A DNA stretch of 63,956 nucleotides, filler included, from Reclinomonas americana ATCC 50394 (lineage: Eukaryota), in the NCBI GenBank assembly GCA_048213135.1. It is 6 parts of 4 records of this genome, joined end to end, with 100 filler letters (N's around TTAATTAATTAA, not from the genome) between each part and the next. Parts side by side here need not be neighbours in the genome. Positions count along the whole stretch, not along the records: positions 1 to 16,621 come from PS015445.1; positions 16,722 to 43,386 come from PS015446.1; positions 43,487 to 51,701 come from PS015446.1; 3 more parts are not named here. One strand, given 5' to 3'. A program made the position numbers and the translations under genes. Below are positions 11,496 through 51,701 of this stretch, in pieces; the first letter of the stretch is position 1; every line of letters begins with the position of its first letter. A model generated the notes under the pieces. That model ran no database searches and was not told the origin of the DNA. It saw nothing but the letters and a program-made list of their open reading frames with translations.

Positions 11496-12848
11496 ATGAG
11501 CGGCGGTGACGCCATGGAATTTCTGGTGGCAGAGGTGCAGCGGATGTGGGCCAAGCTGGTCGATGTGGCGTCCTCAAACTTCCACTGGGAAGAGTTTGTG
11601 CGACCGTGGGACATGGCGAAAGGTACACACTCTCTCTCACACACACGCACACACACGAGGGAGACTCTATGAGCGTGTGAGCGAGAGAGAGCGCGCGGTT
11701 GCATCGCATCTCAAATTTGTTTTGCGTGCATGCATGCAGGATGGGATTGGTCGCAACTCGTCAATCCCTCCGCGTTTGAGTGGCACTCTGCGCCGTTTTC
11801 GAATCTGGCATTCGTGGTGTGGGCCTCGATTGCGTACTTGACCGTGGTCGTTGTCCTCAAGCTGTGCATGAGCTCGCGCAAGGTCGGCCTGCCGATTCGG
11901 CCAATGGTCGCGCTGCACAATTACCACTTGCTGCTCATCTCCGTCGCCATGTCCGTCGGCACCATCTGTGCTGTTGCGTGTTTTTTTATTCTTCTCCCTT
12001 GCTTCTTCTGCTGCTGCTGTGCGTGAGTGTGGGCTCAGCGCCCCCTTCCGCAGGTGTGGAAGATCCTGGTGAATCACATGTCGTCGGTCAGCGAGTTTTT
12101 CGAGTCGTGGGGATGCGACACGGCGGGCGAGATGAGCGTCGGAGCTGTGCGCTACTGGTGCTACATTTTCTACATCTCCAAGGTGGGCAGGCAGGAGCCG
12201 TTTCGCTGTTGTTGGCTGTGCAGCCTGCTGACGATTGCTGCTGCTGCTTGCTGCTAGTTTTACGAGTTGCTCGACACGATGGTGCTGGTGCTGCGCAAGC
12301 GCGACATCTCGTTCCTGCACATCTTCCATCACTTTATTGTGATGTACCTCTTCTGGATGTTCATGGAGATTAAGCTCAGCATCCACTGGGTGGCGGTGTT
12401 GTTGAACGTTGCGTTAGGATAGGAGTGAGCCGTGTGAGGCGCAAACAGGTGCACTGACGATTTCTTGCTTCCTCTCCAACAGTCGCTGGTGCACGTCCTC
12501 ATGTACTACTACTACATGATGACATCGTTTGGGCAGCCGCCGCGCTGGAAGCGCATGGTCACCAAGCTGCAGGTATTGATTGCATCGAAAAAATCGTGTA
12601 GTCACTGTGGATGCGACACTCAGCTCGTCGATGCGTGCATGCTATCACAGATTCTGCAGTTCGTGTCCGACATGCTCTTTGGCTGGCCCTACGTGTACTA
12701 CCACTACATCGACGAGAAGAAGTGCACCGGTCACCCGATTGGCTTCTGGTCCGGCTTCACCATCGGCTCCATTTTCATCGTGTTGTTCAGCCGCCTCTTG
12801 TGCTGTGGTGGCGCGCGCTCCGCCGACAGCAAAGAGAAGGAGGAGTAG
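11496..12848 (+). CDS. ELOVL: Very-long-chain fatty acid elongase (GNS1/SUR4/ELO family), 6 exons
   Basis: Motifs FYISK|FYELLDT, SFLHIFHH (His box), LLN|SLVHVLMYYYY and VTKLQ|ILQF. C-terminal KEKEE. In-frame ATGs at 11496 and 11514. Confidence 0.95.
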
Positions 12849-12951
12849 CACGCGCTGCGTCGTATCTTTCTCTTCTTTCTTCACCCGAGACAAGCCAAAA
12901 AGCGTCTTGTCTCACCACCCCCTTCAACCTATAATATATGCATGTCCATTT

Positions 12952-15943
12952 CTATTCGGTAGCCACTGCTTCTGCTTCTGCAGGCTCCTCTCCATCTCGC
13001 TGCTGCTGCTGCTGCTGCTGCTGCTCCGCCTCCCGTAGCCGTTGCTGCTGCGCGATCTGCTTCTTGAACTGCGAGTACTGGCGCAGAATACCGCGAATGT
13101 CGGCCACTTCGCCGGCAAACTCGGGCTTGTCGCGCACTCGTGTCAGGTAGTCCTCGAACGCGGACGCCATGCGTGCGGCAACCGAGGCGTCGGTGAAGCC
13201 GCCCACGCCCCACGCACGATGCAGCGCGATGCCGAGGTTCTGCAGTGGCACACAACACGTTGATACCAAGGAAAAAAACAACCACTTTCCACTCCCTCCC
13301 ACCCTCCACTCTCTCACCTTGAAAATGTAGTCCGGCATCGGCTCTCCCACATCCTCCTTCATGATGGCCTCCAGATCGGCGGCCATGAACTCCCAGATGC
13401 GCTGCAGCTTGACCCGCTGGCGAGTCACGTAGTCGCGCTCGGCAGGGCTGTCGGGACCTGTCGGTGCAATGGCGTCGGCACCCTCCGCCAGCGCGCGAGT
13501 CATAAAGTAGTGCACGCGGTTGTGGTGCACAATGATAAAGTCATGGCACGCAATGCGCTCCCACGTGCCCTCGGGATACTTGATCGGATCGCAACGCGGG
13601 AACGTGCCCAGCGGTACCAACGCATGCCGCGTGACCTCCAACAACCGATAGGCCTCGTGCGACACAATGTTGGCGCGTCCCGACACATACTCACGCGGCA
13701 TCATGCGCTCCGCAAAGCCGTGTGGCACCAGCACATACGAGGCCTTGTAGGAGTCGTCGCCAGCCTTGACGCCGTAACACGTGTAAATGTCGCGCTGGGG
13801 AATGTTGGCGTTGACAAAGTCGAGCATCGTGTACCCGCCCCGCTCCGTCGGACTGTACAACTCGCCGGGGAAGATGACGGTGCCGGGGAGGCCTTGCGCC
13901 TCCAGCGTGCGCACGTAGTTGGGAGCAAACCACTGATACGACATCATCTCCTGGTCGAGAACCACCACGTCGGTGCGGTAGCCCTCGCACTCCTGCACGT
14001 AGCGCACGGCGTTCGCCACCAGGTCGCCACGTGTCAGCAATATCGCACCCGGAGTCAACGGCATCAGCACTCCACGCCCAAATGCCGCAATGATGCTGTG
14101 CAGTCGGGGACGGGGAACAAACACAGCAGTAAGCATTCTGCCGGAGGCGGCAAGTGTCGACACTGCGGACGCAACTCATTGTCACTCTGGTCGGCGAGAC
14201 GGTACCGCAGCGCGACCACGGTGACCAGCAGTGCCACAGCCAGCACCTGCAGTACCCATTGCGTGTAAGGCTGCCGCTTTGGCGAGGCCTCCGCATTCGA
14301 CGACGATGCCGGTCCATCCACAGAACTCGCAGTGTCAGCGGCCGGCGCCGGCGCGAGTCCCAGCACGCGACACACGGCATGCACTCCAATGCCAATCACC
14401 ACGCACACCAGCAGATCCGGCTGCATCCAGAAGCGCGACACCACGTTGGCCATCAGCGGCTTGTCGGGATCGAGATTGGCGCGTGAGTGGAAAAACACCA
14501 AGTACAGCGCCAGGGCAGCCAGCCACGGGAATGCCAGTCGACCAACACCGCGCGACAGAACTAATTGGTGAGCGAGAAGGGGGGAGAGATGAGAAGCAGA
14601 CCACTGGAACGCAATGCACGCAAACACACCGTTGAGCGACGAACGACGACGCCAGGCCGCCAAAAACGCCACCGCACCAATGCTAAACAGCACGAGGCCG
14701 GTGTGCCACGTCACTGACTGCACGTGCGCAGCGTAGCTGCCGAGGCCGCGCATCAAATCCGGCGGCACTGTGTTGTCGCCACGCGAGGCCAGCTGGAAGG
14801 TGCCGTACTCCTCGCGCGACATGTGGCGAAGGAGGCCCGACACGGACAACATGTCACCTGCACCGGTGCACGGTCTGTCGCTGATGATGTGACGGACGCG
14901 CGACGAGAGAACGCTTACGAACCCCAGGTGTGCGCTGGCGATGCCAGAGCGGCTGCGATTGGCATGTAGAGATATGGCGTCAGACCAAGCGCAAAGTAGC
15001 CGGCGAGTTGCAGGATCAGGCGTCGGAATGACGCCCACGAAGACGCCGCACGCGGAACGGTGGCCAGCACCCACACAATGATGGGAAATTCGTACAGCAC
15101 CAGCGTGTGCTGGTTAGACAGACCGAGTCCACAGACGAGAGCGCCCATACGGCACAGCCACAACTGTCGCCCGGTGAAAATGACCGGCGCCTTCTTGACT
15201 GGTGACGCAGGCGCCGCCTTTTTCGGTGCCGGCACAGGACTGCTGTCGGCCTTGAGCTTCGCCGCGCCGGTTTCCTCATCGCTCTCCACCTGCAGCGCCA
15301 GCTCCACCGACAGCCACAACAGCGCCACCACAAACAAGTTGTTCAAGGCAAACACCTCGGCGCCGATCGAGAACTCCCACGTGAGCGGACTAAAGGCGAA
15401 CAGGGTCGTGGCCACAAGCGACGCCGCCACGTTCTTGGTCAGTCGCCAGCACACCGCGAACACGCCCGCCGCAGTCAGCGAGGCCAGCACGGCGTTGGCC
15501 AGATTTGCCCGCCACGCTGGCGACGGGCCTGCAGTCTGCGGAAACACGCCCAGCACACTCATGGCCGCACGTGCAAACATGGTGAAGAGTGGATATCCAG
15601 GCGGATGTGCCACGCCAAAGTTGCTGGCTGTCAACACACGACGCCGATGAGAAGTCGGAAGACAACTCTTCTCTTGCAATGCATGCATGCATGCATGAAA
15701 TATGATGACGCATACATCTCACTCACACTCACACACACGCACTCTCTTTCTCTCTCTCACACACACACACTCCTCTCTCTCTCTCTCCTCCCCTCTGCCT
15801 CGCATACACACACACAGAGAAGACTGACCGACGGCCAGCAGCTCTCCGCTGTCACCACCCGGTACACTCTTGTACAGCGTGGAGCTGTACACGGCCAGTG
15901 CCACCGCAAAGCACACGAAACACCATCGTCGCCACGACTCCAT
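12952..15943 (-). CDS. TMEM260: TMEM260 (DUF2723) protein O-mannosyltransferase-like GT-C membrane protein
   Basis: Motifs SVPGGDSGELL, GVAHPPGYPLFTM, AEVFALNNLF, GLGLSNQHT, HMSREEYGTFQL, RFWMQPD and GDLVANAVRYVQECEGYRTDV. Confidence 0.92.
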
Positions 15944-15994
15944 CACAATCACTTTTTCTTCCCTTCACTCTCTGAACGAATTGCCGGCGGCGGG

Positions 15995-18900
15995 TCATCG
16001 ACCGGGACCGCGCGACGTCTCCGACACGCGTTGTGAGGCCTTGGCGTCGGTCTCCTTCTTGCGCACCACTGCAGAGAACTTGTGTCCGTATGACTTGCGG
16101 ATCTGATCCAGCAGGTTGACAATCACGTTCGGGTCGCCGCGCAAAATGTCGTTCTCCGACCACAGATAGTCGAGTGGCATGTTCTGCAGTGGAGGCGTAC
16201 ACATGAGATTCACAACGCGCGTGCACCGGTGCCCCCCCACAACCCCTCTAGCTCCCACAAACCTTTCTCGTGCGCAGCACTTCGAGTGCCTTGCGAATGT
16301 TGTGCAGCGAGCTGGCCGACGACTTGGGCACGCGGGAGATGCCCTTCAGCTCGGCGTGCTCCAGGGCGCCCACCAGATCGCACAGCAGCACGCCAGTGGA
16401 GAACTCAGGTACCGAGGTGCCCTCCAGCGAGAAAGGCGAGCGCAGCTCAATGCCGAGCGAGGCCAGCCACTTGCCCAACAAGTAGGCGAGTGAGGGTGCG
16501 AGCTGGTCGTCGTCTTGACCGCCGCGCTGCTGACCCTCAAACACGTCGTGCAGGTGGCGGTGCGTGCCCGAGTGCACCAACTCACTCAGACCCAACGCCG
16601 GTCCATTGGGTGCGAGACCCANNNNNNNNNNNNNNNNNNNNNNNNNNNNNNNNNNNNNNNNNNNNTTAATTAATTAANNNNNNNNNNNNNNNNNNNNNNN
16701 NNNNNNNNNNNNNNNNNNNNNGCATTGGAGGGCGTGGCCGTTGATCCCACAAACGGTTCCGGGTTGGCCGGTGCGTGGTCTAAGGCGGTGCGAAAACAGG
16801 AGTGTGAGGCGAGTGAAATACTGATGTGAAGCAAAAACGAAAGACGAGTGCGAAACTGAGGCCAGCGCCGGTGAGACGTGCCGGTGTCGGGACGGCGGAT
16901 TTGAGCAGCGTGGGCGGTGTCACCGGGCGCTGCAGCTGCACAAACGACTTGTGGATGAACAAGATGGCGCAGCGAGTGACGGTAGGCAACAGGAGCGACT
17001 CACCGACGCGTACTCTGAAACACCGCCGGCGCGCGTATCGATGCGGCGACCATTCAGAATGACTCCCATCTCCTCCTGCGGGTCGACCAACACACTAAAG
17101 TCCATCTGCTGTACAATGTGCTGGAACTCGCCGAGGTACGGCAGCTCCACTGAACCCGGCATTGGCATGGACGGCCGTGGTGGCAGCTTGTCGTACATGC
17201 GATGAATGTCTTCCACCAGACCCAGACACACAATCTTGTTGCCGCTGTAAATCTCCCCGTCGCACCTGTGCGCGTCTTGGTTGAGGAACGCAACAAAGTG
17301 CAAAAACAATAATAGATGCATCAATGTCGACGCACCACAAGAACCGGTTGCTCATGTCCTTCCTGTGGCGCAGGATCTCCATGGCCTTGCCGATGTTGGA
17401 CAGGGCGGTGGCCTTGACCTTGGGATTGCGTGTCACTCCAATCACACGCTTGCCGCAAGTGACAGACACCAGATCGCACAGCATGACTCCATTCTGAATC
17501 GACGGCATGGCTTCGTCGAGGGTGTTGACGGGCGTGGCCGCGTAGCGGAACACACCGAGCGAGTTGAGCCACAGCATTGTGGCCACCTCGAGTCGCCGCA
17601 GCTGCTCGCCATCGTACGGGCAACGTGGATCAGAGACAGTGCGCGATCGCATGCGACTGCGGGCCGTGCGCAATGACGTGGCATTGGGGTACGCCTTGCT
17701 GATGCTCCACACGAGATCCCATAGCACAGTGTCGTTGCCCTGAGCAAACACACGCACACGCGCGCACACACATGCAGTGGTGGGTGCAACAGACTCCGAA
17801 GACTGCTACCACTGCGACGACGTCATCACCAACCTTGACGACCTCTTCACCAGCCCACAGCAGTGTCGTTGGTATTTGCCTCTTCTTGCGCAGCACACTC
17901 AACGCCTTCTCCACATTCTCGCGGGCGGCGACCACAGTCTTCGGTTGTCGCACCACTCCAGTCAACTTCTCACCCTCCAGTGTCTCCACGAGGTCACACA
18001 GAAGGGTGCCATTGCGTCGCGGATCGCGAAGCGGATGCGTCCACTCGTGTAGTGTGGCATTATCGGTGCTGCGCGCGCGATCCGCATCCCGCCTGCGAGT
18101 GGTGGTTACCACTGCACGGAGGGGAGAGCGAGAGAGCGAGAAAAAGTGAGTACGGAGACAAGAGGGGAGATGTGGCGACACACTCACCGCCCACATACTC
18201 GGCCGTCCGCGAATCGTACAGCGGCCCGTCTCCACTGTTCATGCCTGCTGCAGTCTCGTAATCCGACATAACAAGACCGAGCTTGAGCAGGAAACGTTTG
18301 CACGCCGCCTACCATCATCATCATCATCATCATCATCCGTGAATCATAACGAAAAAATGGAGGATGTTGCAGGGTGCGCACGAACCTCACGCTGCAATTT
18401 CGTTTCCTCGTCATCGCGCTGCTCCTGATCCATCTCCGCCAGATGCGGCAGACCGCCCTCCAAGTGGCTGAGCCGACCAGGTGAGTACGCACCACTGCCT
18501 GCCATCGGTTTGGGCAGCGGACTCTTCGTCACGTCTGCCATGTGTTGCAGTGATGCGCCGAGTCCAGAGGAGCCGCCACGAGACCGTGGAGCACTTTGCG
18601 AGCGCTCACGCGATCGCCTCCTGCTGCCGTCGCCGGCACTAGCGCCCCCTTCTGTGGCATTCTGCGGCTTGGAGTCGTTGTGCAGATGTTCCAGGTGCGC
18701 AAACACTCCGTCGATCGAGTTGGTGCGCTTCCTCGACCGTGAGGCCGGCCGTCTCGGGAACTCCTGCGCAGCAGTGAGATACTGTGCGCGACCCTCAGCA
18801 ATACATACACACACACACGCACGCAACTTGCATAATGTCGGCGAGGAGACCCCAGATGACCTCCGTGTCGCCATTCACAATCTCGTCGGTCGCCCACAAG

Positions 18901-21038: not shown

Positions 21039-21688
21039 TCAGAAGCAACAGTCGCAGCTGCACAACAACAGAGCACGCACGAATGAGTTAGCACAAAACG
21101 CCCACGTACGTGTGAGAAAGACGACATCGCAACTCAAAGGGACACAACGGGGTGTCGCCACCCTTGCCGATCCGCAGCTCCTCCGACGAGTACACGCGAA
21201 CGCCGTCGACGATCTTCCCTACACCACAAAACAACGCGCTCACATGTCACGAATCGCGATCGGAGAGGTCGTCGACGTTCTCCCCCCACGACGCAACTGG
21301 AAGCCGCTGATCGTGCGCCTCGTGGATCCGAGAACAGATCATCCCCGTCACCACCGCGCTTCTTGCTCTTCCTTCTGCTGTCGCCTTCAGTCACCTCATA
21401 GTCGTCGTCATCATCGTTGCTGGCGACTGCTGACGCGACCTCGCCTGCTCGTCGCTTGCTGCTCTTCTTCGCCGGTGCTCTTCTCTCCTCTTTCGCCGCT
21501 GCCTCCTCTGATGCCTCTGCCTCACGCTTCTTGCTCTTCACCACGGCAAAGATCGATTCGATGTCCTCGGAGGAAGCAGCAGCAGCAGTGGGTGCCTTCG
21601 TCTTCTTCTTCTCCTCCTCCACCTTCTTCTCCTTTTGCTGCTTCTTGCCCTTCTTGGGCTTGACCTCCTTCGTCTTCCCGGCGTTCAT
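21039..21688 (-). CDS. DUF1764 family protein, 3 exons
   Basis: Lys-rich N-terminus, DIESIFA, and a spliced C-terminus RKIVDGVRVYSSEELRIGKGGDTPLCPFD|CDCCF*, matching the DUF1764 end. Both introns start GTTGCG (21297 and 21133). Confidence 0.88.
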
Positions 21689-21738
21689 TGCGTGTGCGTG
21701 TGATTGAGGGATGTCCTGCTCGTCGTCCGTGTGATTGA

Positions 21739-22194: not shown

Positions 22195-22257
<63 letters not shown>

Positions 22258-22934: not shown

Positions 22935-24708
22935 ATGAGGTCAGTTGTCTCTCAGTGTGTGAGCATGTGTGTGCGTACTGCTGATATGTGCTTGCGTGCT
23001 TGCGTGTGCACAGTTACGCGCAGAGTTTGCGACGAGAAGAGGCGCATGTGGATGGCATCTGGTGTGTGTGCTGGCCGCGCAGTGGAGCACCGCTGGTGAC
23101 AGGCTCAGTCGATGGTGCTGTCAAGCTGTGGTGCGTGTCTGCGTGTGTGTGTGTGTGTGACATGCGCGCGCACTCTTTTCTCTCTTGTCTCTTACACATG
23201 CATGCAGGGCACCGGAGACACTCGAGTCGAGAGTGCAGTTTGACGCGCATCCGCTTGGTGTGCTGTCGGTGACGTGTGATCAGGGTGGACGAGGTCTGTG
23301 TGTCGATGAATGATTGATTGTGATTGATTGCATGCACTCATTTTCCAGTCTTCCCCCGTTAGTGTGCGCCGCCTCGTCCATGGACAGCCTCATTGCCATT
23401 TACGACTTGGAGCGTGGACAGCGAGTGAATGAGATTGGCAAGAAGAGTGCACCAAGTTGCGCGCATGCATCGTTGCTGCGGTGCTTGCTGTTGTCTCACG
23501 CTCATTGTCAGTGGACATATGGACGAGCTGCATCACGCCCGACGCCAAGTACGTGGTGGCTGGCGGGCAAGTTGCGCTGCACAGTGGTATGCGTGCGTGC
23601 ATGTAGGGTCGTTGAGTCGCTCACCAGCAAGCATACAGAGTGGCAAGGCGCAGTTGTACGATGTGGAGAAGGGCGGCAATCCGACGGCGTCGTATGAGAC
23701 GCGCGGCCCGTTCATCATGAGTGTCAAATTCGTTGCGTGTGCGCCGCCGTGTTGTGTTTGGCTTGCTGCGTGTGCAGTTCTCAATGACTAAGGCAGAGCC
23801 CCGATGGGCGGATGCTGGCGTGTGGGTCGAAGGACGGCCTGGTCACGGTGTTTGACGCCGAGAGCCGTGCACTGCTGTACCGGTTGGAGGGTTACGTCTG
23901 GCCCTCCCTCACTTTCCTGTGTGCGCATCGTCTGAAGAGAATTGGATGCCGACAGGTCACTCGTTGTGCGTCCGCGCCTTGTCGTTCACGCCGGACTCGG
24001 CACACTTGATTACGGGCTCCGACGACAAGCACATCCACGTGTATAGCATGGCCGATGGCCGTCTGGTGGGCTCTGTCAGTGGCCACTCGTCGTGGGTCGT
24101 GTCGGTGGATGCTTCGCCCGATCGGCGGCATTTTGCGTCTTCGTCGACCGATCACCACGTCAAGGTGTGGGATTTGCGGACGCGCGAGGCGGTCACCACA
24201 TTTGGTGGATACCACACCGATCAGGTGTGCATTCTNNNNNNNNNNNNNNNNNNNNNNNNNNNNNNNNNNNNNNNNNNNNNNNNNNNNNNNNNNNNNNNNN
24301 NNNNNNNNNNNNNNNNNNNNNNNNNNNNNNNNNNNNNNNNNNNNNNNNNNNNNNNNNNNNNNNNNNNNNNNNNNNNNNNNNNNNNNNNNNNNNNNNNNNN
24401 NNNNNNNNNNNNNNNNNNNNNNNNNNNNNNNNNNNNNNNNNNNNNNNNNNNNNNNNNNNNNNNNNNNNNNNNNNNNNNNNNNNNNNNNNNNNNNNNNNNN
24501 NNNNNNNNNNNNNNNNNNNNNNNNNNNNNNNNNNNNNNNNNNNNNNNNNNNNNNNNNNNNNNNNNNNNNNNNNNNNNNNNNNNNNNNNNNNNNNNNNNNN
24601 NNNNNNNNNNNNNNNNNNNNNNNNNNNNNNNNNNNNNNNNNNNNNNNNNNNNNNNNNNNNNNNNNNNNNNNNNNNNNNNNNNNNNNNNNNNACACCGACT
24701 CAGTGTGC

Positions 24709-24751
<43 letters not shown>

Positions 24752-25017: not shown

Positions 25018-28000
25018 TCACTTGTCGAGCAAGTCGTCCAGCGATTCGATTTCGGGATCTGGGTCGTCGGCAGCCACGGTAGCAGTCGATCCGCGAGACG
25101 ACAGTGCAGAAGAGGAGCCAGATGATGAGGCTCCCTTCTTGTCGTCCTTCTTGTCATCCTTCTTGTCGTCCTTCTTCATCCACTTGAAGGGCGAGAGGAA
25201 GTTGGCCAGCATGCCACGCTTCTTCTTGGATCCATCACCGTCGCCGCCCTTGTCCTTGTCTGCGGCTGCACTGTCGCCAGGAGCCGATGGGGACGACGGG
25301 CCGGCACTGCCCAGAGGCGATTCAGAATCGGGAGGAGTGCCTTCCGCGTGCGCAATCAGGGCCGCGGAGGCCGTGGTGGACGACGACGAGGAAGAGGAGG
25401 AAGAAGCGCCGCCGCCGCCACCGCCAAGAACAGCTTCGGCCGAGAGCGTGGGCTTGGCGTTGTACCGCGCCTGGAACTCGGTGGGCAGTCGATTGAGCAT
25501 CTCGTCGCGCAGCAGTGTTACGTCCTTGGACTGCGCGGACGACAGCGACGATGTCCACGCCATCATCTCGGTCAGCGACGGCAGCACGCGATCCGTAATC
25601 AACTCATTTGGTACGGCTGCAATGGGGCACAGAGTTCAGCCACGGTTGCTGCTGTGTTCTTCACGCATGCGCCGCACGCAACTGCTTCCCATGACGGCGC
25701 GGAAGCACTCAATGAGACCGGTGAGCCAGGCCTTTCGCTTGGCCTTGGAGTCGAGTTCGCGCAGCCGGTAGGGGACCATAGTGAATCTTGGAATCAAGAC
25801 TGTCGCAGGGGGAATAGAAAAGAATCAGTGCTCCGCCAGCCAGCCTGCCTGCCTGCTTCTCTTCGACTTGCACGACAACGCAACAGTTTTCACGAATCTT
25901 CTCGTGAACATTCGGCAGTGCCTCCGAGAACGACGTGAGCATCTCCTCAATGGCCTCGAAACTGGCCCCGTCAAGCAGGCTGTCCATCACAGTTTGCACA
26001 CGATCGACCACCGGCTGCGACAATCAACAGCGGTGGATGAGCAACTCGTGCACTGCAGAAGAGTCAGCAACGCGAAACTCACCGACAACGCGTTGACCGA
26101 GTTCAGCACCACCGTGAGGGCACGGATCAGTGCACAGCGGACCTTCGGCGTCTCGTCCGACCCAAAAGTGATGAGCGCAGGCAGCACACGGTTGGAGATC
26201 ACATCTTCCGATACTTGATCCACCAGTGCGCTGAAGACAGAAATGAGGATTACGCGCACATTGGCCTCGGGTCGCACTACCAGGTGCCAGAGGGCGACGA
26301 GCACCGATTCGGCCAGCGATCGCGACACCGACCTGCAGCACTATCAGTGTTGTTCTCACAAAGATGAGAAGAGAACCAGCCGACGCAACACTGCATGTCG
26401 AACCGCCTCGCACAGCACTTGCGGAGACTCTGCATCCCATCGCTTGTCGCCAGACGCCATCTGCGACACGGTAATCTCCAAAAACGTAGTCACATTGGCC
26501 TCGTTGATGACGGGCAACACGCCCGACAGGAACGTCAGCAAAATCGTCTTGCGCGCTGTGCGTCGTTGCGTCAGCATCGTGCGACCAGAAACCACTGTAG
26601 CTNNNNNNNNNNNNNNNNNNNNNNNNNNNNNNNNNNNNNNNNNNNNNNNNNNNNNNNNNNNNNNNNNNNNNNNNNNNNNNNNNNNNNNNNNNNNNNNNNN
26701 NNNNNNNNNNNNNNNNNNNNNNNNNNNNNNNNNNNNNNNNNNNNNNNNNNNNNNNNNNNNNNNNNNNNNNNNNNNNNNNNNNNNNNNNNNNNNNNNNNNN
26801 NNNNNNNNNNNNNNNNNNNNNNNNNNNNNNNNNNNNNNNNNNNNNNNNNNNNNNNNNNNNNNNNNNNNNNNNNNNNNNNNNNNNNNNNNNNNNNNNNNNN
26901 NNNNNNNNNNNNNNNNNNNNNNNNNNNNNNNNNNNNNNNNNNNNNNNNNNNNNNNNNNNNNNNNNNNNNNNNNNNNNNNNNNNNNNNNNNNNNNNNNNNN
27001 NNNNNNNNNNNNNNNNNNNNNNNNNNNNNNNNNNNNNNNNNNGCCCCGGCTGGCGCTGCTGCTGCCGCCCCTCATCCCCCACCGGCTGCGTCGGCTGCTG
27101 CATCGGCGGCGTCGGGTTCCGGTGGTGCGCTATCGTTCGTGTCACCATTTTTCTTGTGTGTTCCTGTCTCACGGTTACGCGCAGCCAATGTCCCGCTTGC
27201 GTTCTTCCCCTTGTTCGTGGCTCATCTGGAGTCGGCCACTGCCGATGCCAAGACCGAGGACGACACGGCGGATCGGTTAACTCGCCAGGCGAGCGGAATT
27301 GCGCAGGGATTGGCGCTGGCCTTTACGCGGCTGTTCCCCAGGGCCACCATCGAGACGGCGCCCAACCTCTTGCTGGAGGTGGCCTTTACACAGGTGAGTG
27401 AGTGTTCCTTTCAGTCTCCCTCTATTTTATGTCAGATGAGTGCTGAGCGAGCGTTGCGTGCTGCAGTGGGACATTTTGAAGCAGCACCCAAAGATGCCGG
27501 AAGACGTGTCGGTGGTGGAACGCGCACGCAATCTGCACAACGACGAGGCATCGTCGTTCCTCCAGTCGCTTCTTGGAGAATATGTTAAAATCGAGGTGGG
27601 ACGACGAGGGCGCGGACAGCGTGAGGCGTGGGGTCCTGTGGCGTGGCTGCTCGACGAGGCACTGCCGAGGATACGCAACTGTGTTGTGTTGCTGCCGAGA
27701 GCCAAGACGCGAGTGCACCAGGCGTTGGCCGGACTGGTGCGCACCATTGCACAGCTGTGTGGAACGGCATTTTGTGAGCACGCGGTGCTGCCGTTCTTCC
27801 AGGAGGTGCTGGAGGACCCGAAGAATCACGATGGTGTGTATAAAATNNNNNNNNNNNNNNNNNNNNNNNNNNNNNNNNNNNNNNNNNNNNNNNNNNNNNN
27901 NNNNNNNNNNNNNNNNNNNNNNNNNNNNNNNNNNNNNNNNNNNNNNNNNNNNNNNNNNNNNNNNNNNNNNNNNNNNNNNNNNNNNNNNNNNNNNNNNNNN

Positions 28001-32047: not shown

Positions 32048-32418
32048 GATAACACCCCCTCCCTTGTTTTCCTCTTTGGCCTCTCTGCGGGGTGTCGCGT
32101 TGCTCGTCAATGTGGTGGATGGTTGGTGTGGTTGTTTGCGCTGAGGGGGGCGCGCGCTCGGCGAGAGAGAATCAGAGTTGATGATGAGGGGCGTGGCAAT
32201 TGTGATGTGTATTACATGACGGTCGTTGATGGTGATGGCATTGGTGGTGGGGTCTGTTCCCTCGCTATTGCCAAGTGATCCTCCTTGGAATTTCTCCGCC
32301 GCTCCGGGCGAACGTCGACTGCTATCGCGAGTCCTGTTGCGTCCATCAAGAGAGACGACGAGGGGAGAGAGCGCGCAATGTGCCTGTAGCCACCCGCTGC
32401 AATACACACACAAAGGCC

Positions 32419-39500: not shown

Positions 39501-42500
39501 NNNNNNNNNNNNNNNNNNNNNNNNNNNNNNNNNNNNNNNNNNNNNNNNNNNNNNNNNNNNNNNNNNNNNNNNNNNNNNNNNNNNNNNNNNNNNNNNNNNN
39601 NNNNNNNNNNNNNNNNNNNNNNNNNNNNNNNNNNNNNNNNNNNNNNNNNNNNNNNNNNNNNNNNNNNNNNNNNNNNNNNNNNNNNNNNNNNNNNNNNNNN
39701 NNNNNNNNNNNNNNNNNNNNNNNNNNNNNNNNNNNNNNNNNNNNNNNNNNNNNNNNNNNNNNNNNNNNNNNNNNNNNNNNNNNNNNNNNNNNNNNNNNNN
39801 NNNNNNNNNNNNNNNNNNNNNNNNNNNNNNNNNNNNNNNNNNNNNNNNNNNNNNNNNNNNNNNNNNNNNNNNNNNNNNNNNNNNNNACACGGCAACATGC
39901 AGCGGTGTCTGCTCCTGGTTGTCCGCCTTGTGCAGCATGATCGGCACGCGACCTGCGAGCACACGAGCGAAAGGTGAGGAGACTGTTATCAAACAAACCA
40001 AAACCACAAACATGGCCCACCATGGTCGGGCTCGCAGATCTCCGGATGCTGCTGTGCGTACTCGAGCAACATCTCCACCACATGAGCGTGCCCGCGCGCC
40101 GCCGCCATGTGTATGCACAGCTGCTGCTTGTTGTTGGCAAGCTGCGTGTCGGCGCCAAGCTCCAGCAATTGGCCCACGGTCTCCTCGAAGCCAAACATGC
40201 ACGCCAGATGGAGTGCGGTGTTGCGATCCTTGTCTTGCGCATTGATGTTGGCGTTGAATTCAGCAAGCAGCTTGGTGGCCTACACGCGCGCGCAAGCGGT
40301 AAGCAATCTTGCTGCATTCGTGAGTGAAGAGAGCTGAGACACACCTCGGCGAAATCGTCCACTGCCGCATACAGTATGGCGGTGGATTCGTAGTGCGAGG
40401 GTGTTTCAGGATTGGCGCCGGCCTCCAACAGAATACGAGTCGACGCGAGATTGCTGGATCACGAAANNNNNNNNNNNNNNNNNNNNNNNNNNNNNNNNNN
40501 NNNNNNNNNNNNNNNNNNNNNNNNNNNNNNNNNNNNNNNNNNNNNNNNNNNNNNNNNNNNNNNNNNNNNNNNNNNNNNNNNNNNNNNNNNNNNNNNNNNN
40601 NNNNNNNNNNNNNNNNNNNNNNNNNNNNNNNNNNNNNNNNNNNNNNNNNNNNNNNNNNNNNNNNNNNNNNNNNNNNNNNNNNNNNNNNNNNNNNNNNNNN
40701 NNNNNNNNNNNNNNNNNNNNNNNNNNNNNNNNNNNNNNNNNNNNNNNNNNNNNNNNNNNNNNNNNNNNNNNNNNNNNNNNNNNNNNNNNNNNNNNNNNNN
40801 NNNNNNNNNNNNNNNNNNNNNNNNNNNACAACGTGAGGAAAATGAGCAGGCCAGCGCACGCTCAACGTCGACCAATACGCACCGGTGCAACACAGCGAAT
40901 TGCAGCGGTGTAAATTCGGCACCATTTAACGCATCAATGTCCTTGTACAGCGGCGCCAGATATCGCACACATCGGTCGCCGTAGCGAGCGGCAATGTGCA
41001 GCGCCTGCAAAAGCACAACAATTCAGCGGACGACGAGACAAAAAGTGCGATTAATATCACACACACCGTAAGACCGTGCTTCTCCGTGCACAACAGATTG
41101 GCGCCGGCCTCCACAAGGCGCTTTGTGCATTCGACTTGGTCGCGGAAGCAACTAAAAATCAGGGGTGTTGAGTTGACATGATCGCCCTCGTCCAGTCGAA
41201 CCTGCGTTTTTCACTCGGTCAGTACGTACACCCGGAATGTCATTGTCACGTGTGAACCGCCCATCGCAACTCTCTTCTCAATCAGCAAATCCAGCGCATG
41301 TGTGTTGCCGGCCAGCGATGCATTGTGAATCGGGCGGAAGCGATTCAGGTCCGGCGCATCTGGCTTGGCGCCACGCTCGTTCAACAGCGTGCGCAAAATC
41401 TCGGGGTTGTCCTGTAAAACAAATGCGTGCATGAGGTGAGCGGAACCGAGGCAGAGAAGGGGATGACACCTTCACCAACCTTGAAGCAGAAGCAGGTGAG
41501 GTGCACCACCTCGATGCCCTTCGGGTCGCTCTTGGCGACATCGGTGCCAAACCGAAGGAGCAGGCGCACGAGTTCCTCATTCATGCGCAAGCACGCCTCG
41601 GTCAGCACGCTGCACTCGGCCAGATCCAGAGCGTTCGGATCTGCTCCGTTTTGCAGCAAAAGTGCCGCGCAGTCCTGCTTCTCGGCAAACACTGCGTAAT
41701 GCAGCGGTGTACCGCCTTCCCTGTCGCGCGCATTGACCTGCGCGCCCTGCTCCAACAGATAATTCACACAGTCCACGTTTCCACCAGCAGCCGCCCAGTG
41801 CAACAAGGTGGCGCCGTTGCGACTGGCATGATGTACGGTGATGCGCGGCAAGATGCTGCATGGTTGACAACAACAAACAAGAGAAAGCGTAGAGTCGCAT
41901 CAGCAACTCCACTCGAGTGGCACACAAAGTGCGTGTGGCGCGTTACCGTTGGAGGGCCTTGATTTCGCCCTCGGCGGCCCAGATGAATGCCATATCTTCG
42001 CGACAGAATCGCGGCAATAGTGACCGGATGCATGCACCCGGTGGCAGTCGCTCATACTCCTCCTCGGCCGACAGTCCACGATGCAAGAAAGCCTGCTCAA
42101 CAACAAGAGGGGGTGAACAAACAACATCACCATCATCCCCGCGGACAACCTGTAAGACGCAACATCCGGATCGCCTCCGAGCATCACAGGCGAGGCGCGC
42201 ACCTCGTCCACCGCCGGACGAGCGCGATCGTACTGGCTGCACGACGGACTGGCGTGCAGGCTGGAGCTGGCGAATGGGTGCTCGCGCGCCGGCAGCGCCA
42301 TGGACGACGACAACGGAATGCGCGCCACATTCAACTCATCCTCGTCGCGGCCGGGGCGGTACGATGGTAGCCGTGACACGTATTGCATGTCGAGGCAGAG
42401 CAGATCGTGGGAGAAGATCTTGTTGAACTTGTGCTTGGAGGTGAGATCACCGCCAAAGATAATCGCATGTGACTGGTACAAGTCGCACGAGTGACTGAAT

Positions 42501-44895: not shown

Positions 44896-46968
44896 ATGCG
44901 CGCCTTGCTTCTTCTCGCCTGTGCACTTGTGTGTGCTCTGTGCTTCACACATGGAGGCCTCCTCGCGCACGGAATGAATGTGGTGGGCGGTGTGAACATC
45001 ACGGGCTTGCAAATTCACTTGCAGGGACTCGGCTTGCGCGTGTTTCGTGTGGGCGATGGGCAGTCACTGCAAGAGGCTGGTGTGTGTGTGTGTGTTGAGA
45101 ATGCTCTCTTTGGTGCGCATTGTCGCTGAGCACAAATGGCAGCGATTGCATTCTGTCACGAGAATGGACTGGATGTGCGCATGGCGCCCGAGTTGGAGGC
45201 GGTGGCGCAGAGGACCGTCAGTGACTTTGCCTCCAAGCATTTCGTGGTGCGGGCGTGCACAAGTGATCGCTTCTTCATCGGTCTTGTGTTGAGGCTCTCG
45301 TTGTGTGTGTGTGTGCCAGGCGGTCAACACGTTTCAAGAGATGGTGCTGGGAGCCGAGTGGCGACGCCCGGATGGTGGCCAGCGTGCAGTGCCGCAGCCG
45401 GACGCGAAGGAGGAGCAGCAGCAGCAGCAAGAACAGGAACTGGCACGGCGACCACCGTTTGCAGAGTGGCGCCACGGAGGCGCCTTGATGCGCGAGCTGA
45501 GTGCGCTTCCGTACTGTCACGTGTGGTGCCTCGACTTGCCGCGAGCGGGTGGCGCGCTGTTGTGCGACTGTCGACACATTGACGATGAGTTCATTCGACG
45601 TGGGCTGATGCAGTTGCCGCCGCCGCTGCCGGAGCTGAGTGGTCGCATCTTGCCGCCGAATGTGCCGAGCCTGTTGCCGGCGTCGATGTGTCAGAGCTTT
45701 GAGGCGTACATTTGGCGTGTGCTGAGCTCCGATGAGGCACTGCGACAGACAGCGGCTGCTGTGGAGCGCGGATTGGATGCGCCGCAACCGGTGGCCCTGT
45801 TTCCCAGTGGATTCCGCGAGAATGCTGACACCATGCAGCAACTGGCCGCTCGTCTGCCGCGCCACGTCCTCTCCGAGCAGTCGCGTATGGTGGTGTATAC
45901 CACGGTCAAGATCCGCCCTGGCGAAGGTTATTCCTCGCACTGTCACGCTCCACTGGCGTGCGCTCAATGATCGATACGTGTGCATGTGCACAGGTGCGGA
46001 GACGTGGAAACAAATGGTGCGCAACTGGCTGGTGTTCTTTGCACGCGCACACGGACCCGACGTGCTGCCACTGATTGTGTGCCTCGACGAGTCCACGTAT
46101 GAGAGTGTGGTCGAGGCTGCCGACGGCAATCGGGAGATTGCTTTCCTCGACAATAGTGGCTGGTGCGATGCATGCACTTGCTGGTGTGGTGGTGCTGATT
46201 TCACATTCTCATTGCGTACAGGAGCGACAAGCGCGGCAAGGTCGGTGGAACCAAGCTAAACTACGCGCCGACCATCAACGTCAAGTACCTGTACGCCTAC
46301 ATGATGCTGCGCGCCGGTTTCCAGCCCGTGTATGCCGACGCTGATGCGCTGATCACGCGCGATCTACGCACGGTGACGGCGCTGCTGATGCCGTCAGGCG
46401 TCGACTTCACCATGCAATACGACTGCTTCGGTTCCTGCAATCCGGCTCCGCTGACGCTGACGCCGTCGGTGCGAAGACAGCGAGGCCCGTATTTGGTGAC
46501 ACCCGATTGGTGCCTGTGGAACGACCCGTCGTCGTGTGCCGAACATCAACGACGCTTCTGCGTCAACACCGGCTTCTTCACCGTGCGCCCAAACGCCTAT
46601 GGCTTGCGCTTCTTTGCCCACGTGCTCGATCTGCTGCACGGCGAATGGGATCGCTGGTTCGAGCAGGATCTCGTCAACGTGCTGCTCGACTACCACACCC
46701 GACTGGCACGCCTGCGCTTCGACTGGTTCGAGCCGCGCGTCATCAATCAGCACGAGAGCCTGATCAGTCTGGTGGAGAACGGCGTGGAGCTCGACGTGCA
46801 CAAGATTGCAGTGGTTGCGTCGCGCTCCCCAAGTAGTAATGTAGCGTGTGCTGGATGGACTCACTCTCTCTCTCGCAGTTGCACATTATGGGACCCGGCA
46901 TGGAGAAGGTGCGCACCATGCAGGAACATGGCTTGTGGAGCCCCGACGTTGATGATGCAAGAAAATAA
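44896..46968 (+). CDS. Secretory-pathway nucleotide-diphospho-sugar transferase (GT77-like)
   Basis: Signal or anchor sequence MRALLLLACALVCAL; MVRNWL; IVCLD; DxD motif in VYADADAL; VNTGFFTVRP; EQDLVN; C-terminal LHIMG..EKVRTMQEHGLW. Confidence 0.8.
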
Positions 46969-47121
46969 ACACGAGTAGAGACCACAGTTGTAGTTTTCCT
47001 TTTACTCCGTCTGTGCTATTCGTTGTGTAGATGCTCGTGGTGAAAAAAATGCGACGCGACGTGCAAAGCAACACGCGTCCGTCGTTGTCGTGTCATATGT
47101 CCTCTCACCACATTCTCAACA

Positions 47122-48712
47122 ATGCGCGCACTCGTGCTCCTCATTGCGCTCTTTGCGACACTGGCGATTGTGTGTCACGCACAGTCCGCTCTGCGCGGCC
47201 AATCAGACGACAACGAGGAGAAGTTCACTGTCGGCGGCAATCCCAACTCTCCGTATCGGTGAGCGAGAATGACCCCCATATGCATTTTTGACTGCACTCT
47301 TGATTGACTCACTGTGCCTGCTGCAGCATCCGGAGCATCTACTATGACTCTAACAAGATCTACTTTGTGAGTGGCGCACGCTCTCCGTGTGCATGAGTGT
47401 GTCCGCTGACACTGTGCAGACTGTCGACTCGTCGCCCAACGCATACATCTGCAAAACAGGCGCCATGTCCACTGCAGACAGTCTGGTGTACGTGCCCATT
47501 GCTCAGGACCGCCTTGGTGCCATTGTGAAGCCGACGGAGAAGAACACGCCGGAATTCTATGACATGCTTTATGTGGCCGGCACGACCTCCATTTACACCA
47601 TCCGGACCGCCGATCTGGCCACTCTCGAAAGCAATCGCGTCATCAGTGACCCCAGCACGGTGTTTGGAAGAATGGGTGCGTGCACGTGAGAGTCTGCTGT
47701 TCATTTTAAACCGTGACTGACTGGTGTGCAGGCTTGGCGCTGAGTGCCGACGAGGAGTACCTGGTGCGCTCCTCCAACCACGTCCTTGTTGCCCTTTACT
47801 TTTGGCTCACACGCGACTGCAGTACACCGCGGTGAACAATGCCGACAGCAATGCGCACTACAAGCTGACGGTGTCCGGATTTGGCGTGCCGTCTCTCAAC
47901 ACCACCAACTTCATCTACCCGGGCAGTTACAACGCGGAGAGCCGCGAGTCGATGACCAACGGTGTCTTCGGCTCGGATCCGAACTTCGTGTACTTTGTGG
48001 TGCCGAATGGCAGCGAAAACTACAACTACCCCGACTCCCCGGCGCAGGGCGCCGTGGTGCAGTTCAACGTCGCCGACAAGCGCTACTTGACGCCGACTAA
48101 GCTCGTGTCGCTCCCGGCCGGTGTCGATTACGGCAAGAACGCCTTCTTTGTGGTTTCGTGATGGCGCCACCCGCTCTGTTATTTTTCTGTGTGCTCGAGT
48201 GCTGATCAACGAGTGCCAACACGCTGCAGCCACACTACACGCAAGCCGACATTGTGTACATTGTGTCGGAGACTGGCCAGGTGCAGCCGGTGCAACTTGG
48301 CAGTGGCGACGCCTTCAAGCTGTTGCCCGGCAACTACACGCTGGCAGGACCCCTCGGCGGTGAGACTTTCATCTCCGCCGTGGCCTCGTCAACTCTCCTC
48401 GTGCCGGGCTCCGCGGAATCTGGCCTGGCACAGCGAGTCAAGCGCACCACACTTGTCACCCGCTCGTCGAAGCCCGTGTTCGTGCAGCCCAAGAATCGCC
48501 TCATCCGCCTGGACATCACCACTGGCTCCATTGACTTTGTGCTGCGCGACCGCTGGTGGAGCGCATACGATATGACCGCGTTGGCGGTGTCCGACGACGT
48601 CGGCACCTCCTTTGTGGGAATCTTCATGGACGGCGAGGTGTGCCTGGCGTGGAACCTTGACAACAGCTTCAGCAGCAACAACTTGGCGTGTTACCCGCAG
48701 CTTGCGGTGTAA
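47122..48712 (+). CDS. Secreted beta-rich (propeller-like) protein of unknown family
   Basis: Signal peptide MRALVLLIALFATLAIVCHA. Frame-consistent small exons, many NxS/T sequons and short beta-strand repeats. Confidence 0.6.
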
Positions 48713-48961
48713 GGAGAGGGAGAGATTCTGCAAGGTGCTTACAGCATGCAAGTTCAATGAATGCAGCTGCCACTTTTTTGAGGCGCTACATGGCACCCGA
48801 TGAGCCCCGAGGTGACCCCACGTCCACGTCGACAGTCGAGGACGGCTGCAGGACATTGCATTTCGTGCGTTACGAGAGAGAGAAAGGGGAAGGAACCGAG
48901 ATATCCCCGTATACTGCCAAAGAAAGAACACGATCAACCAGCAAAGCAAGAGCAGCAGAAA

Positions 48962-51701
48962 ATGTCGGTGATTGGTATCGACTTTGGTAACGATCGGTGA
49001 GTCTTTGTGCCCGACATGTCCCCTACTCTCTGTTCTCTCTCTCTCCCTCCCTTTCTGCTTCTCTCCACTTCCTAGTCGTCTCGTTTGCACGCGATCTCTG
49101 CGCAAGTGTGTGTGTGTGTTGTCCGTTCCACATATTCTGCGTGCTTGCGTCATGAGGAATTTGTCAGCTGAGACTTACACACTGTGTGATCATTGCCACA
49201 GATGCAAGGTCTCACTGCCTGCAGGCGGCATCGTCGAAGTGGTGCTGAACGAGGTCTCCAATCGCGAAACACCGTTGCGTTTGCTTGCTTGCGTGGGGGG
49301 ACAAGTGCTTGCGTCATGTGTGTGCCATGCTCACGTGTGAGCCACACTCTTCTTCTTCTTCTCCCGTCTTCTCCAACAGAACATTGATTGGCTTCAGCGA
49401 TAAGGAACGCGACATTGGCGAGACGGCGTTGTCCAGGGTGAGTGAGTGAGTGAGTGCGTGAGGTGCTGACGTGGCTGACAACTGGTGTGCTCATCGTCAT
49501 ACACAGCTGTCGATGAACTATGCCAACACGGTGGTCGGCCTGAAGGTGTTCATCGGTCGCAAGTTCAGCGAGTCGATTGTGCAGGATGAGATTGCTCGAG
49601 TGGGATGCACTGTCGTGGAGGGCCAGAATGGCGATGCGGCGTTTGAGGTTTGTGCAGAGAGAGCGAGAGGCTCGTCTTCCTGTGCCGATTGCTCATTGTG
49701 TGGTTTCGGGATCGCACAGGTGGAGTACCAGGGCAGGAAGGTGATTGTGACGCCCGAGCAGTGCGTGGCGGCGCTCTTCCGTCGCTTCAAGGAGTTCGCC
49801 GAGCAAAAGATCGGCAGCAAGGTCGCCGATTGTGTGGTGGCGGTGCCGAGCTACTTCTCCGACGCACAACGCCGTGCCGTGTTCAACTCGTGCAGCATTG
49901 CTGGCCTCTGCTGCCTGCGTGTGTTTAGCGAGAGCGCTGCTGGTGAGACTGGCTGTGCTCACTTTGTTGTGTCGTCTGGCTCACCGTTCCCCCCCGCTGT
50001 GCAGTGAGTCTGCAGTACGCCTTCTCGCGCCTCAGCGAGTTGCCGACCGCCGATCAGGACGCTCGCCTGGTGATGTTTGTCGATCTGGGACACTCGTCGC
50101 TGGACGTCACGATCAGCAGCTTCAACCAGAACGGCTTGAAGGTGCGTGTGTGCGACACACGTTGTGTGACGGGCACACTGTCCTCACTCACCTCTTTTAC
50201 CCGCAGGTGCTGGCTGCCGTGTCGAACCCTCACATTGGCACTCGTGATTTGGATTTGGTGATTGCCGAGTGGGTCCGCGCCAAGTTCCAGGCGCAAACCG
50301 GTCTCGATGTGCGCGAGCGCAAGCGCAACTGGATTCGTCTCCTGGCCGCCGCCGAGCGCTTCAAGAAGCTGCTGTCGGCCAATCGAGTTGTGCCCGTGAA
50401 TGTGGAGAGCATCTTTGGCGATCACGACTTCCGTGGCACGATTGAGCGCGAGGAGTTCGAGTCGCTGGCGCAGGGCACGCTCAGCCAGATGATGGCTCCG
50501 ATTCACACCTGCATTGCCATGGCCAGTTGCGTGTGGCTGTCCCCCTCTATAGTCTGCTGCTTTTATTCATTCGTTTCTCACGTGTGATATACACATTTGC
50601 AGAGGTCGCCGCCACGTCGCTGCACTCGATTGAGATTATCGGTGGAGGTTCGCGCATTCCGGCGTTCCAGCAGCAGGTCAAGGACTTCCTTGGCCAGCCG
50701 AGCCAGACGCTGAGTGCCACCGAGGCCGTCTCGATCGGCGCATCGTGGATGGGCGCCATTCTCAGCCCGTCGTACCGCGTGCGTCCGTTCGAGGTGCGCG
50801 ACACTGTTCCGTACCCGATCAACCTGCACTGGGGCGCCGCCAGCAAGGTCCAGTCGAGCGGCATGGATGTCGACGACACGTCACCTGTTGCGTCACTCAT
50901 CCCACCTCCACTGTCCCGCATTTCTCCTTCTGTGTGTGTGTGTGCTGACCCTCGTCGGCTGCGCAGCTGTTCACTCAAGGCGAGGTGTACCCGGTGATGA
51001 AGTGCATTACGTTCCGCGAGACCGACGACATTATCCTGTCGGTTGAGTACGACCGCCGTGTCGAGTACCGCACGCCCGACGACCACCCTGTGGTGTTGGG
51101 CGAGTTCCGCGTGAAGGGCGTTCCGCGCGATTTGGTGGACGGCAAGAAGCCCAAGGTCAAGGTGCAGCTGCGCATGAACATGCACGGAGTGGTGGAGGTC
51201 GAGTGGGCACGCCTGATCGAGGAGTACGAGGAGGTGGTGGAGCCGGCAAAGGAGGGCGAGGCCAGTGGAGCAGAGGGTGCAGCGGCGGCGGCCGAGCCGG
51301 TGCTGAAGAAGAAGGTCCGCAAGACCGATCTGGAGGTCGAGTCGCGCGTCAATGGACTCACGTCGCAGGTGGTCGAGGTACGCGTGTCTGGGGGGAGGAG
51401 GGGGATGATGTTGGAGGAGAAGACTGACACTCTTCATGTTGCAGCGATTCCGCCAATCCGAAGACGAGATGGTGGCCAAGGACAAGCTGGTGCTGCAGAC
51501 GCAGGAGGTCAAGAATGCTGTGGAGGCCTACATTTATGCCTTCCGAAGCCGCGTGCAAGAGTACGGTGATTTGGTCGACTACGAGGTGGCTGAGGTGAGA
51601 GAGAGGACACTGGATGCAAGTGCAAGGGCTGTGAATGTGCATGATGCTCACAAACGTGTGCTTCTTTTTCGCCGCAGATTCGTGACGCCTTCTTGGCATA
51701 C
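48962..51701 (+). CDS. HSP110/Sse1-type Hsp70-family chaperone; 3' end truncated at a linker gap
   Basis: Motifs MSVIGIDFGN, VLNEVSNRETP, DCVVAVPSYFSDAQRRA, VMFVDLGHSS, IEIIGGGSRIPA, ILSPSYRVRPFEVRD, KVKVQLRMNMHG, KKKVRKTDL and KNAVEAYIY. Confidence 0.93.

Follow-up and report, generated by a model that had tools for sequence, protein, structure and literature searches.

GTTGCG(T) 5' splice sites and exon ends other than G in a genome window of Reclinomonas americana: a possible second donor class read one base out of step

We analyzed a 63,956-base stretch of DNA from Reclinomonas americana ATCC 50394 (assembly GCA_048213135.1), hereafter the window, in which many predicted introns begin with the hexamer GTTGCG, mostly followed by T, at exon ends that lack a final G. 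The window is not one molecule. It consists of six parts (1-16621, 16722-43386, 43487-51701, 51802-58328, 58429-62753 and 62854-63956) with N44-TTAATTAATTAA-N44 spacers between them (16622-16721, 43387-43486, 51702-51801, 58329-58428 and 62754-62853). It contains 6,201 N in all, and 13 further N runs of 20-779 bases break several genes, so that some gene models are truncated. The window is intron-rich eukaryotic DNA, with a G+C content (GC) of ~55% and short introns (median about 70-75 nucleotides, nt). Pfam searches on single exons identified a BTB/BACK protein, an ELO-family elongase, a TMEM260-like mannosyltransferase, a CH-domain protein, a WD40 protein, HEAT and LisH proteins, a uroporphyrinogen-III synthase, a TatD protein, a Kelch/ankyrin protein, a glycosyltransferase and an HSP70-superfamily protein that is HSP110-like by its homologues. 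The family assignment of the TMEM260-like exon was upheld by an ESM Atlas search. An Rfam scan of the window returned no RNA gene and no small nuclear RNA (snRNA), hence no match to U1.

A sequence-only reading of positions 11496-51701 had counted 27 GTTGCG donors, 26 of them after A, C or T, and had proposed that the donor motif slides by one base where the exon cannot supply G at its last position (-1). Because selection by eye risks ascertainment, canonical donors being picked for following AG, we built a splice-aware gene finder that is blind to exon bases. Gene models were obtained by dynamic programming, in which exon scores came from codon log-odds trained on the window's own sequence. 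Introns carried a fixed cost and were scored further on length, on an acceptor matrix, on a branch-site-like motif and on a two-component donor model. The donor model sees intron positions +3 to +8 only, and exon bases never enter the donor choice. The first three passes were crude, with genes fused or short exons missed. Even the crudest of them chose GTTGCG more often than any other donor hexamer (6 of 75 introns), and a pass without the donor model placed GTTGCG donors at 16 of 95 introns. The final models hold 128 introns in the window. For each donor we computed delta, the fall in the local best score (in nats) when that donor is forbidden, and defined the 72 introns with delta >=3 as the confident subset.

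GTTGCG donors begin 30 of the 128 predicted introns (23%) and 25 of the 72 confident ones (35%; Table 1). They are found on five of the six parts. Inside 11496-51701 there are 22, of which 21 follow a base other than G, and all eight outside it do so as well. The five further donors of the earlier count are either unmodelled or lie beside masked or poorly modelled stretches. The -1 base is A at 16 donors, T at nine, C at four and G at one, so that 29 of 30 agree with the first observation. As had been pointed out, the single exception, at 46814, has an in-frame alternative GT three bases upstream (GCA/gtggttgcg; here and below a slash marks the predicted exon-intron boundary).

The GTTGCG class exists in this window and is tied to the -1 base. 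In all 128 introns, -1G precedes 1 of 30 GTTGCG donors versus 52 of 76 donors with G at +5 (Fisher p=3.7e-10); in the confident subset the counts are 1 of 25 versus 33 of 39 (p=5.1e-11). The association thus sharpens as model confidence rises, which is the opposite of how a modelling artefact would behave and argues against one. The sequence-only reading had called for a two-by-two comparison of the -1 base with +5G against +6G donors. Run on the GT donors of the predicted introns, this comparison gives -1G at 52 of 74 +5G donors and at 5 of 42 donors with +6G but not +5G (p=6.3e-10). The same split is seen from the exon side. Most of the 35 confident exon ends that are not G are followed not by a canonical donor but by GTTGCG (24; six are followed by a +5G donor, three of these GTGAGT, and five by another donor), and the 37 confident exon ends in G are followed by GTTGCG once. 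The donor lists first written for the ELOVL, WDR61 and HSP110 genes were confirmed on re-reading the sequence. By eye, for instance, the three non-G exon ends of the HSP110 gene use GTTGCG and the rest of its donors follow G. The counter-example noted then, a GTGAGT donor after TTT, also appears in the exon-blind model (Table 1).

The GTTGCG introns appear to be real because 26 of the 30 cannot be read through, containing a stop codon in frame or having a length not divisible by three. In the ELO gene the Pfam ELO profile is continuous across the junctions (97 to 98, 148 to 149 and 181 to 182). The eight donors listed earlier for the WD40 gene were reproduced by eye, and the sequence typical of the repeat, K-F/S-P-D-G, runs across one of them. 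In the HSP110 gene the ends of tblastn segments from homologues fall at or close to the class donors in most cases (Table 1). Both donor classes are alike in their branch-site-like motif, CAG/TAG acceptors, lengths (median 70) and phase distribution. The motif YTSAY lies near the 3' end of 22 of 28 class introns versus 56 of 67 other introns, the model rewarding it equally in both. A bias in intron phase was considered as the cause and rejected (GTTGCG versus +5G donors, p=0.66 and 1.0). We therefore regard GTTGCG(T), with even confidence, as a second class of ordinary GT-AG, U2-type 5' splice sites that serves exons with a last base other than G.

Both the exon and the intron preferences of the class are displaced by one base. 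In order to judge the exon side, expected bases were taken from a coding background matched to the phase of each intron; in the predicted codons, G makes up 41% and A 10% of third positions, and G 38% of first positions. Against this background, G is depleted at -1 of the GTTGCG donors (1 of 30, 10.7 expected, p=2.5e-5) and A is enriched (16 of 30, 4.8 expected, a value reached in 0 of 200,000 simulations). Canonical donors have A enriched at -2 (30 of 76, 14.8 expected, p=3.5e-5), where G is somewhat depleted (15 of 76, 22.1 expected, p=0.041). At the level of whole profiles, -1 of the class is distinct from the canonical -1 (chi-square p=7.6e-10) and not clearly different from the canonical -2 (p=0.07 for all introns, 0.40 for the confident subset). 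On the intron side, T stands at +7 of 24 of the 30 GTTGCG donors (22 of 26 in another tally) versus +6 of 46 of 65 canonical donors, and the +6G and +7T of the class occupy the places of the canonical +5G and +6T. Position +3 is T in all 30 members by definition; the 12 other +6G donors have T (8), C (2) or A (2). Set side by side, MA/GTTGCGT and MAG/GTRNGT are alike but for one base, with the cut one base earlier. Within the class, -1A and loss of +7T are not significantly linked (5 of 6 versus 11 of 24, p=0.18).

The idea that the motif slides by one base therefore stands as far as the displaced preferences are concerned, with -1 resembling the canonical -2, and is not supported as a simple slide of the canonical motif or as an energetic compensation, as described below. 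The further claim that exon ends are freed from splicing constraint was overstated, as -1 keeps a preference of its own (A > T > C >> G). As a separate observation, canonical +5G donors often have G at +7 (GTNNGTG, 36 of 65), while G is found at +8 of only 8 of 26 class donors; the canonical +7G may be due to pairing that extends past +6, or simply to intron starts rich in GT.

The hexamer itself is not more frequent than expected by chance (75 copies versus 67.7 in dinucleotide shuffles and 61-67 under Markov models). What stands out is its placement, together with the heptamer GTTGCGT, which has 36 copies versus 12.6-15 expected, 24 of the 36 being predicted donors. Among heptamers of the form GTT-NN-GT it is the only one clearly enriched (36 versus 12.6); the next are those with TC (11 versus 6.2) and GA (11 versus 7.0). 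One G-preceded GTTGCGT, at 43139(-), was considered as a donor and rejected because it lies inside an intron, too near the acceptor. Inside predicted exons there are six sense copies of GTTGCG (Table 1) and 16 antisense copies, and T at +7 is missing from all six sense copies. This would be in keeping with exons avoiding cryptic GTTGCGT donors, but the argument is in part circular, since the model itself prefers the motif as a donor.

Because -1G is depleted and -1A enriched like the canonical -2A, the profile supports a register shifted by one base. The interpretation to which we give even weight is that the class is read in a register one base away from that of the canonical donor, as a U2-type shifted-register 5' splice site. 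The reader, as we infer, is the 5' end of U1, standard or variant. The intron's +1G would take the place of the exon's -1G, opposite U1 C9, and the exon's -1 base, preferably A, would take the place of -2A, opposite U1 U10. The +3U (able to pair with U1 A7), +6G and +7U would then stand at the places normally held by +2U, +5G and +6U. Cleavage would still occur in front of GU, presumably set later by U6 and U5.

We computed pairing energies with ViennaRNA for the U1 5' end as printed in PMC4856993, with unmodified U for pseudouridine and without small nuclear ribonucleoprotein (snRNP) proteins. CAG/GUGCGUG reaches -8.6 kcal/mol and CCA/GUGCGUG -2.1. For the class, the shifted register gives -2.2 versus +0.9 kcal/mol in the canonical register after CCA, and -0.4 versus +1.0 after CAA. 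After CCU and AAC the two are about equal (shifted about +0.9, canonical +0.8 to +1.1). At CA-preceded sites the shifted register alone has a negative predicted energy (CCA/GUUGCGUG, -2.2 versus +0.9 kcal/mol), and members without a preceding CA have about 0 kcal/mol.

Several observations weigh against the shifted-register interpretation. The first concern energy. With H for any base but G, H/GUUGCGUG has -2.2 to about 0 kcal/mol versus about -2 for H/GUGCGUG. This is no gain, so the extra T buys nothing in the standard-U1 model. CAG/GUUGCGUG, at -5.6 kcal/mol, would pair better than any real member, and yet it is the avoided form. The proposal that U1 duplex energies compensate for a missing -1G was not supported by this calculation: standard U1 gives no advantage, and the G-preceded form is predicted to be better. 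In addition, a G at -1 should be able to form a wobble pair with U10, but among the -1 bases G is the rarest and T ranks second. The second group of observations concerns rigidity. At +3 and +4, the confident canonical donors have GC in only 6 of 39 cases (GA 9, TT 7, TC 5, GT 5), whereas the class is fixed on GCG. A plain shift would predict a spread of GTT-RN-GT donors led by GTTGAGT, which pairs better than the class motif (-6.6 kcal/mol) and occurs once. GTTGCG dominates instead (30 donors versus 12 other +6G donors), and the enrichment of GTTGCGT alone among the GTT-NN-GT forms points the same way. The third group concerns the data. G before GTTGCG is also uncommon at non-donor copies (7 of 49), so the depletion is clear only with canonical donors and coding sequence as backgrounds. 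The sample is one window with ~58 kb of readable sequence. All junctions are predicted, from ab initio models, Pfam continuity, one homologue alignment and by-eye reading. The self-trained models also hold errors that we found by hand in the HSP110 gene, where intron 1 and the donor at 49944 were mis-called; by eye, intron 1 is 48997-49201 (TCG/gtgagt) and the donor near 49930 is CTG/gtgaga at 49944. Because both errors added spurious non-G 'canonical' donors, the true split is probably cleaner than our counts.

The rigidity of the motif would be accounted for by a dedicated reader, which we consider unlikely but worth retaining. Here the rigid (A)/GUUGCGU would be recognised by an RNA or protein of its own, as a separate splice code in which the displacement is kept. 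The class motif is near-invariant over seven bases, while canonical donors vary at +3 and +4; the sole enrichment of GTTGCGT, the standard-U1 energies near zero for most members, the avoidance of a -1G that would help standard U1 and the absence of +7T from the sense exonic copies (with the circularity noted above) are all in its favour. A dedicated or altered U1-type RNA remains a candidate because a closely complementary RNA would yield a near-invariant seven-base motif. One such candidate would be a second U1 copy with A for C8, with or without changes at positions 5-6. On the other side, the window holds no snRNA gene by Rfam and so lends no direct support, and we know of no variant U1 genes that serve a large intron class. 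In its general form, this would mean two parallel donor codes in the major spliceosome, a degenerate G/GTRNGT and a rigid A/GTTGCGT read off-register by a dedicated or retuned U1-type RNA; we think this improbable to the same degree.

A bulged-U register is more doubtful still. U1 would pair normally at -1, +1 and +2, one additional U, at +3 (or +2), would bulge, and +4 to +7 would pair as the canonical +3 to +6 do; the bias at -1 would then arise by indirect compensation only. The motif is indeed GTGCGT plus one T, a bulge +2/+3 register is described as validated in human in PMC4856993, and some GTT-NN-GT donors do follow G (AGG/gttacgtc, GTG/gtttcgtg and GAG/gttccgtg). However, with C9 free, -1G would be expected as at canonical donors (52 of 76), and the class instead has it in 1 of 30, below the coding background, with -1A enriched in its place. 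Where -1G is absent, the bulged pairing is predicted at about +1 kcal/mol. The bulge +2/+3 assignment, which should favour G at -1, is contradicted by the -1 counts of the class. Apart from the class, four +6G donors follow G, namely the three above and ACG/gtaacgcg (Table 1). These look like bulged-nucleotide sites that coexist with the GTTGCG class, and the non-G rule applies to GTTGCG(T) without extending to all +6G donors.

An artefact of gene modelling, with sites chosen by their likeness to known consensus sequences, is very improbable. The first reading was by eye, the donor model learned GTTGCG and favours such sites among in-frame alternatives, and some model errors were found (HSP110). 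Against this, exon bases are unused in the donor choice and GTTGCG was frequent even in the crude passes. False donors would carry the background frequency of -1G and so weaken the association rather than create it, and it is sharper with confidence, with Pfam and tblastn junction checks in agreement. A derived minor-spliceosome (U12-like) class, or recently spread introners carrying their own donor, is just as remote: a rigid donor without -1G preference recalls U12-type introns, which account for a large fraction of the introns of one slime mould, but GTTGCGT is unlike RTATCCTT, the TCCTTRAC branch site is missing (TCCTTRA in 0 of 28 class introns), the branch-like motif, acceptors and lengths are those of other introns, and intron bodies beyond the first eight bases are no more alike within the class than between classes (mean local alignment score 8.06 versus 8.13, Mann-Whitney p=0.76), so that neither U12-type identity nor a repeated intron family was accepted.

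The dependence between -1G and +5G in 5' splice sites is well known. A paper on LUC7 distinguishes 'left-handed' from 'right-handed' 5' splice sites (10.1101/2022.12.07.519539). In such a trade-off, weak pairing on the exon side is offset by a strong intron side. Three of the six confident non-G +5G donors here are GTGAGT and fit this pattern. That trade-off is graded within one register, whereas the GTTGCG class is a discrete motif, one base longer, with its own -1A preference. Noncanonical U1 registers are known too. According to PMC4856993, those validated so far together make up 1.5% of human sites; the GTTGCG class makes up 23-35% of the predicted introns here. The same paper credits the shifted register at rare human sites to Roca and Krainer 2009 (its reference 10), with ACA/GUCAAGUAUA as a model oligonucleotide. 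Those sites share with the class a GU followed by U at +3, a consensus displaced by one base and +1G opposite U1 C9. They are experimentally validated, whereas the class here is predicted, fixed on GCG at +4 to +6, not the best U1 complement and tied to non-G exon ends. The bulge +2/+3 register (Roca et al. 2012, reference 16 of PMC4856993) shares one extra U after GU, but keeps -1 opposite C9 and should favour the -1G that the class lacks. A tunicate paper only raises the shifted register as a possibility (PMC13326754). Like the GTTGCG class, U12-type introns form a separate set whose rigid donor does not require -1G; they differ in their donor and branch motifs, and the 3' parts of the class introns are the same as those of other introns. 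GTTGCG or GUUGCG(T/U) was not found as a splice motif in the best-ranked literature matches, though the class may have been described for this lineage by a sequence logo alone. Although the -1G/+5G trade-off and noncanonical U1 registers are already known, a discrete, rigid and abundant shifted class tied to non-G exon ends is, as far as we have checked, new.

If the shifted-register interpretation is true, a noncanonical U1 register that has been treated as a rare exception would be a standing, sharply defined class. It would provide a natural system for studying how a 5' splice site is measured, that is, which RNA sets the register and how the exon end is constrained, and how a site is handed over from U1 to U6 when the registers disagree by one base. 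It would also bear on where introns reside or slide, since exon ends that use the class would no longer have to carry G. If instead two codes operate, the second would serve a quarter to a third of introns, after exon ends unable to carry G. Gene prediction based on one donor matrix alone would put about one intron in four in the wrong place here, as our own first passes did.

Table 1. Predicted GTTGCG donors and related sites in the window (exon in capitals, intron in lower case; positions count along the window; delta in nats)
Site	Position	Strand	Delta	Gene and remarks
AAT/gttgcgac	1058..1063	+	9.8	BTB/BACK gene
AGA/gttgcgtc	2504..2509	+	5.5	
AAC/gttgcgtc	5328..5333	-	13.7	large gene 3141-7685
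TTT/gttgcgtg	5789..5794	-	9.9	
TCT/gttgcgtt	7537..7542	-	2.8	less certain
GCT/gttgcgtg	11973..11978	+		ELO/ELOVL gene; extending the exon to the donor raises Pfam ELO from 21.1 to 25.3 bits
AAC/gttgcgtt	12408..12413	+	11.0	ELO gene; Pfam ELO 148 to 149
TGA/gttgcgtc	14170..14175	-	7.1	TMEM260-like gene
CAA/gttgcgtg	18822..18827	-	3.9	CH-domain gene
CCA/gttgcgtc	21292..21297	-	4.9	
CAA/gttgcgcg	23456..23461	+	4.3	WD40/WDR61-like gene; by eye
CAA/gttgcgct	23571..23576	+	3.9	WD40 gene; by eye
TTC/gttgcgtg	23732..23737	+	3.7	WD40 gene; K-F/S-P-D-G; by eye
GCA/gttgcgtg	25677..25682	-	7.6	HEAT-repeat gene
ACT/gttgcgtt	25879..25884	-	10.1	
AGT/gttgcgtc	26384..26389	-	2.3	less certain
CCA/gttgcgtc	29446..29451	-	0.0	LisH/HEAT gene; uncertain
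GAT/gttgcgta	30022..30027	-	6.3	
CCA/gttgcgtc	32747..32752	+	12.3	uroporphyrinogen-III synthase gene; Pfam HEM4 79 to 80
GAA/gttgcgtt	34591..34596	+	3.5	TatD gene; TatD profile to the exon's last residue
GAA/gttgcgtt	35891..35896	+	5.1	
AGA/gttgcgat	41265..41270	-	3.1	Kelch/ankyrin gene
GAT/gttgcgtc	42158..42163	-	7.7	
GTG/gttgcgtc	46814..46819	+	9.3	only GTTGCG donor after G; in-frame GT three bases upstream
ACC/gttgcgtt	49274..49279	+	1.7	HSP110; tblastn segment ends at 49274; by eye
CCA/gttgcgtg	50526..50531	+	13.2	HSP110; Pfam HSP70 318 to 325 (five unaligned residues); tblastn to 50524
CCT/gttgcgtc	50887..50892	+	10.1	HSP110; tblastn to 50883-50907 (three homologues), 50841 (one)
ACA/gttgcgtg	52846..52851	-	7.2	
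GCA/gttgcgcg	55284..55289	+	0.0	uncertain
GGA/gttgcgct	63458..63463	+	4.6	
TTT/gtgagtgg	47367..47372	+	4.8	counter-example: canonical donor after a base other than G
AGG/gttacgtc	23891..23896	+	6.9	WD40 gene; GTT-NN-GT donor after G; looks bulged-U, outside the class
GTG/gtttcgtg	48153	+		other +6G donor after G
GAG/gttccgtg	43181	-		other +6G donor after G
ACG/gtaacgcg	41946	-		other +6G donor after G
GTTGCG in exon	5580	-		sense copy without +7T
GTTGCG in exon	13595	-		sense copy without +7T
GTTGCG in exon	29570	-		sense copy without +7T
GTTGCG in exon	33777	+		sense copy without +7T
GTTGCG in exon	34152	+		sense copy without +7T
GTTGCG in exon	38314	-		sense copy without +7T

The HSP110-like gene (48962-51701, + strand) reaches the contig end and has at least 13 introns within 2.7 kb. 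One of its exons, compared with a representative protein library, had best matches only 34-41% identical; no close relative was found in that library, which suggests a poorly sampled lineage. A search for homologous proteins with an HSP110 exon gave no scored match. A metagenome scan with an HSP110 exon retrieved three loci. These were of no use for comparing orthologous introns because they are 39-51% identical and AT-rich, with 0-2 GTTGCG each.

Many introns start with or hold (GT)n or (CT)n microsatellites (for instance 23140-23160, 49106-49120 and 31733-31820), which account for runs of in-frame alternative GT donors and for several low-confidence calls (gtgtgtgt donors). Finally, CCT/gttgcgtc is present at 32336-32341 (+), 54 nt upstream of the acceptor with which the HEM4 coding exon begins. 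This may be one more GTTGCG donor, belonging to a 5' exon, in place of which the model used a weak donor at 32256.

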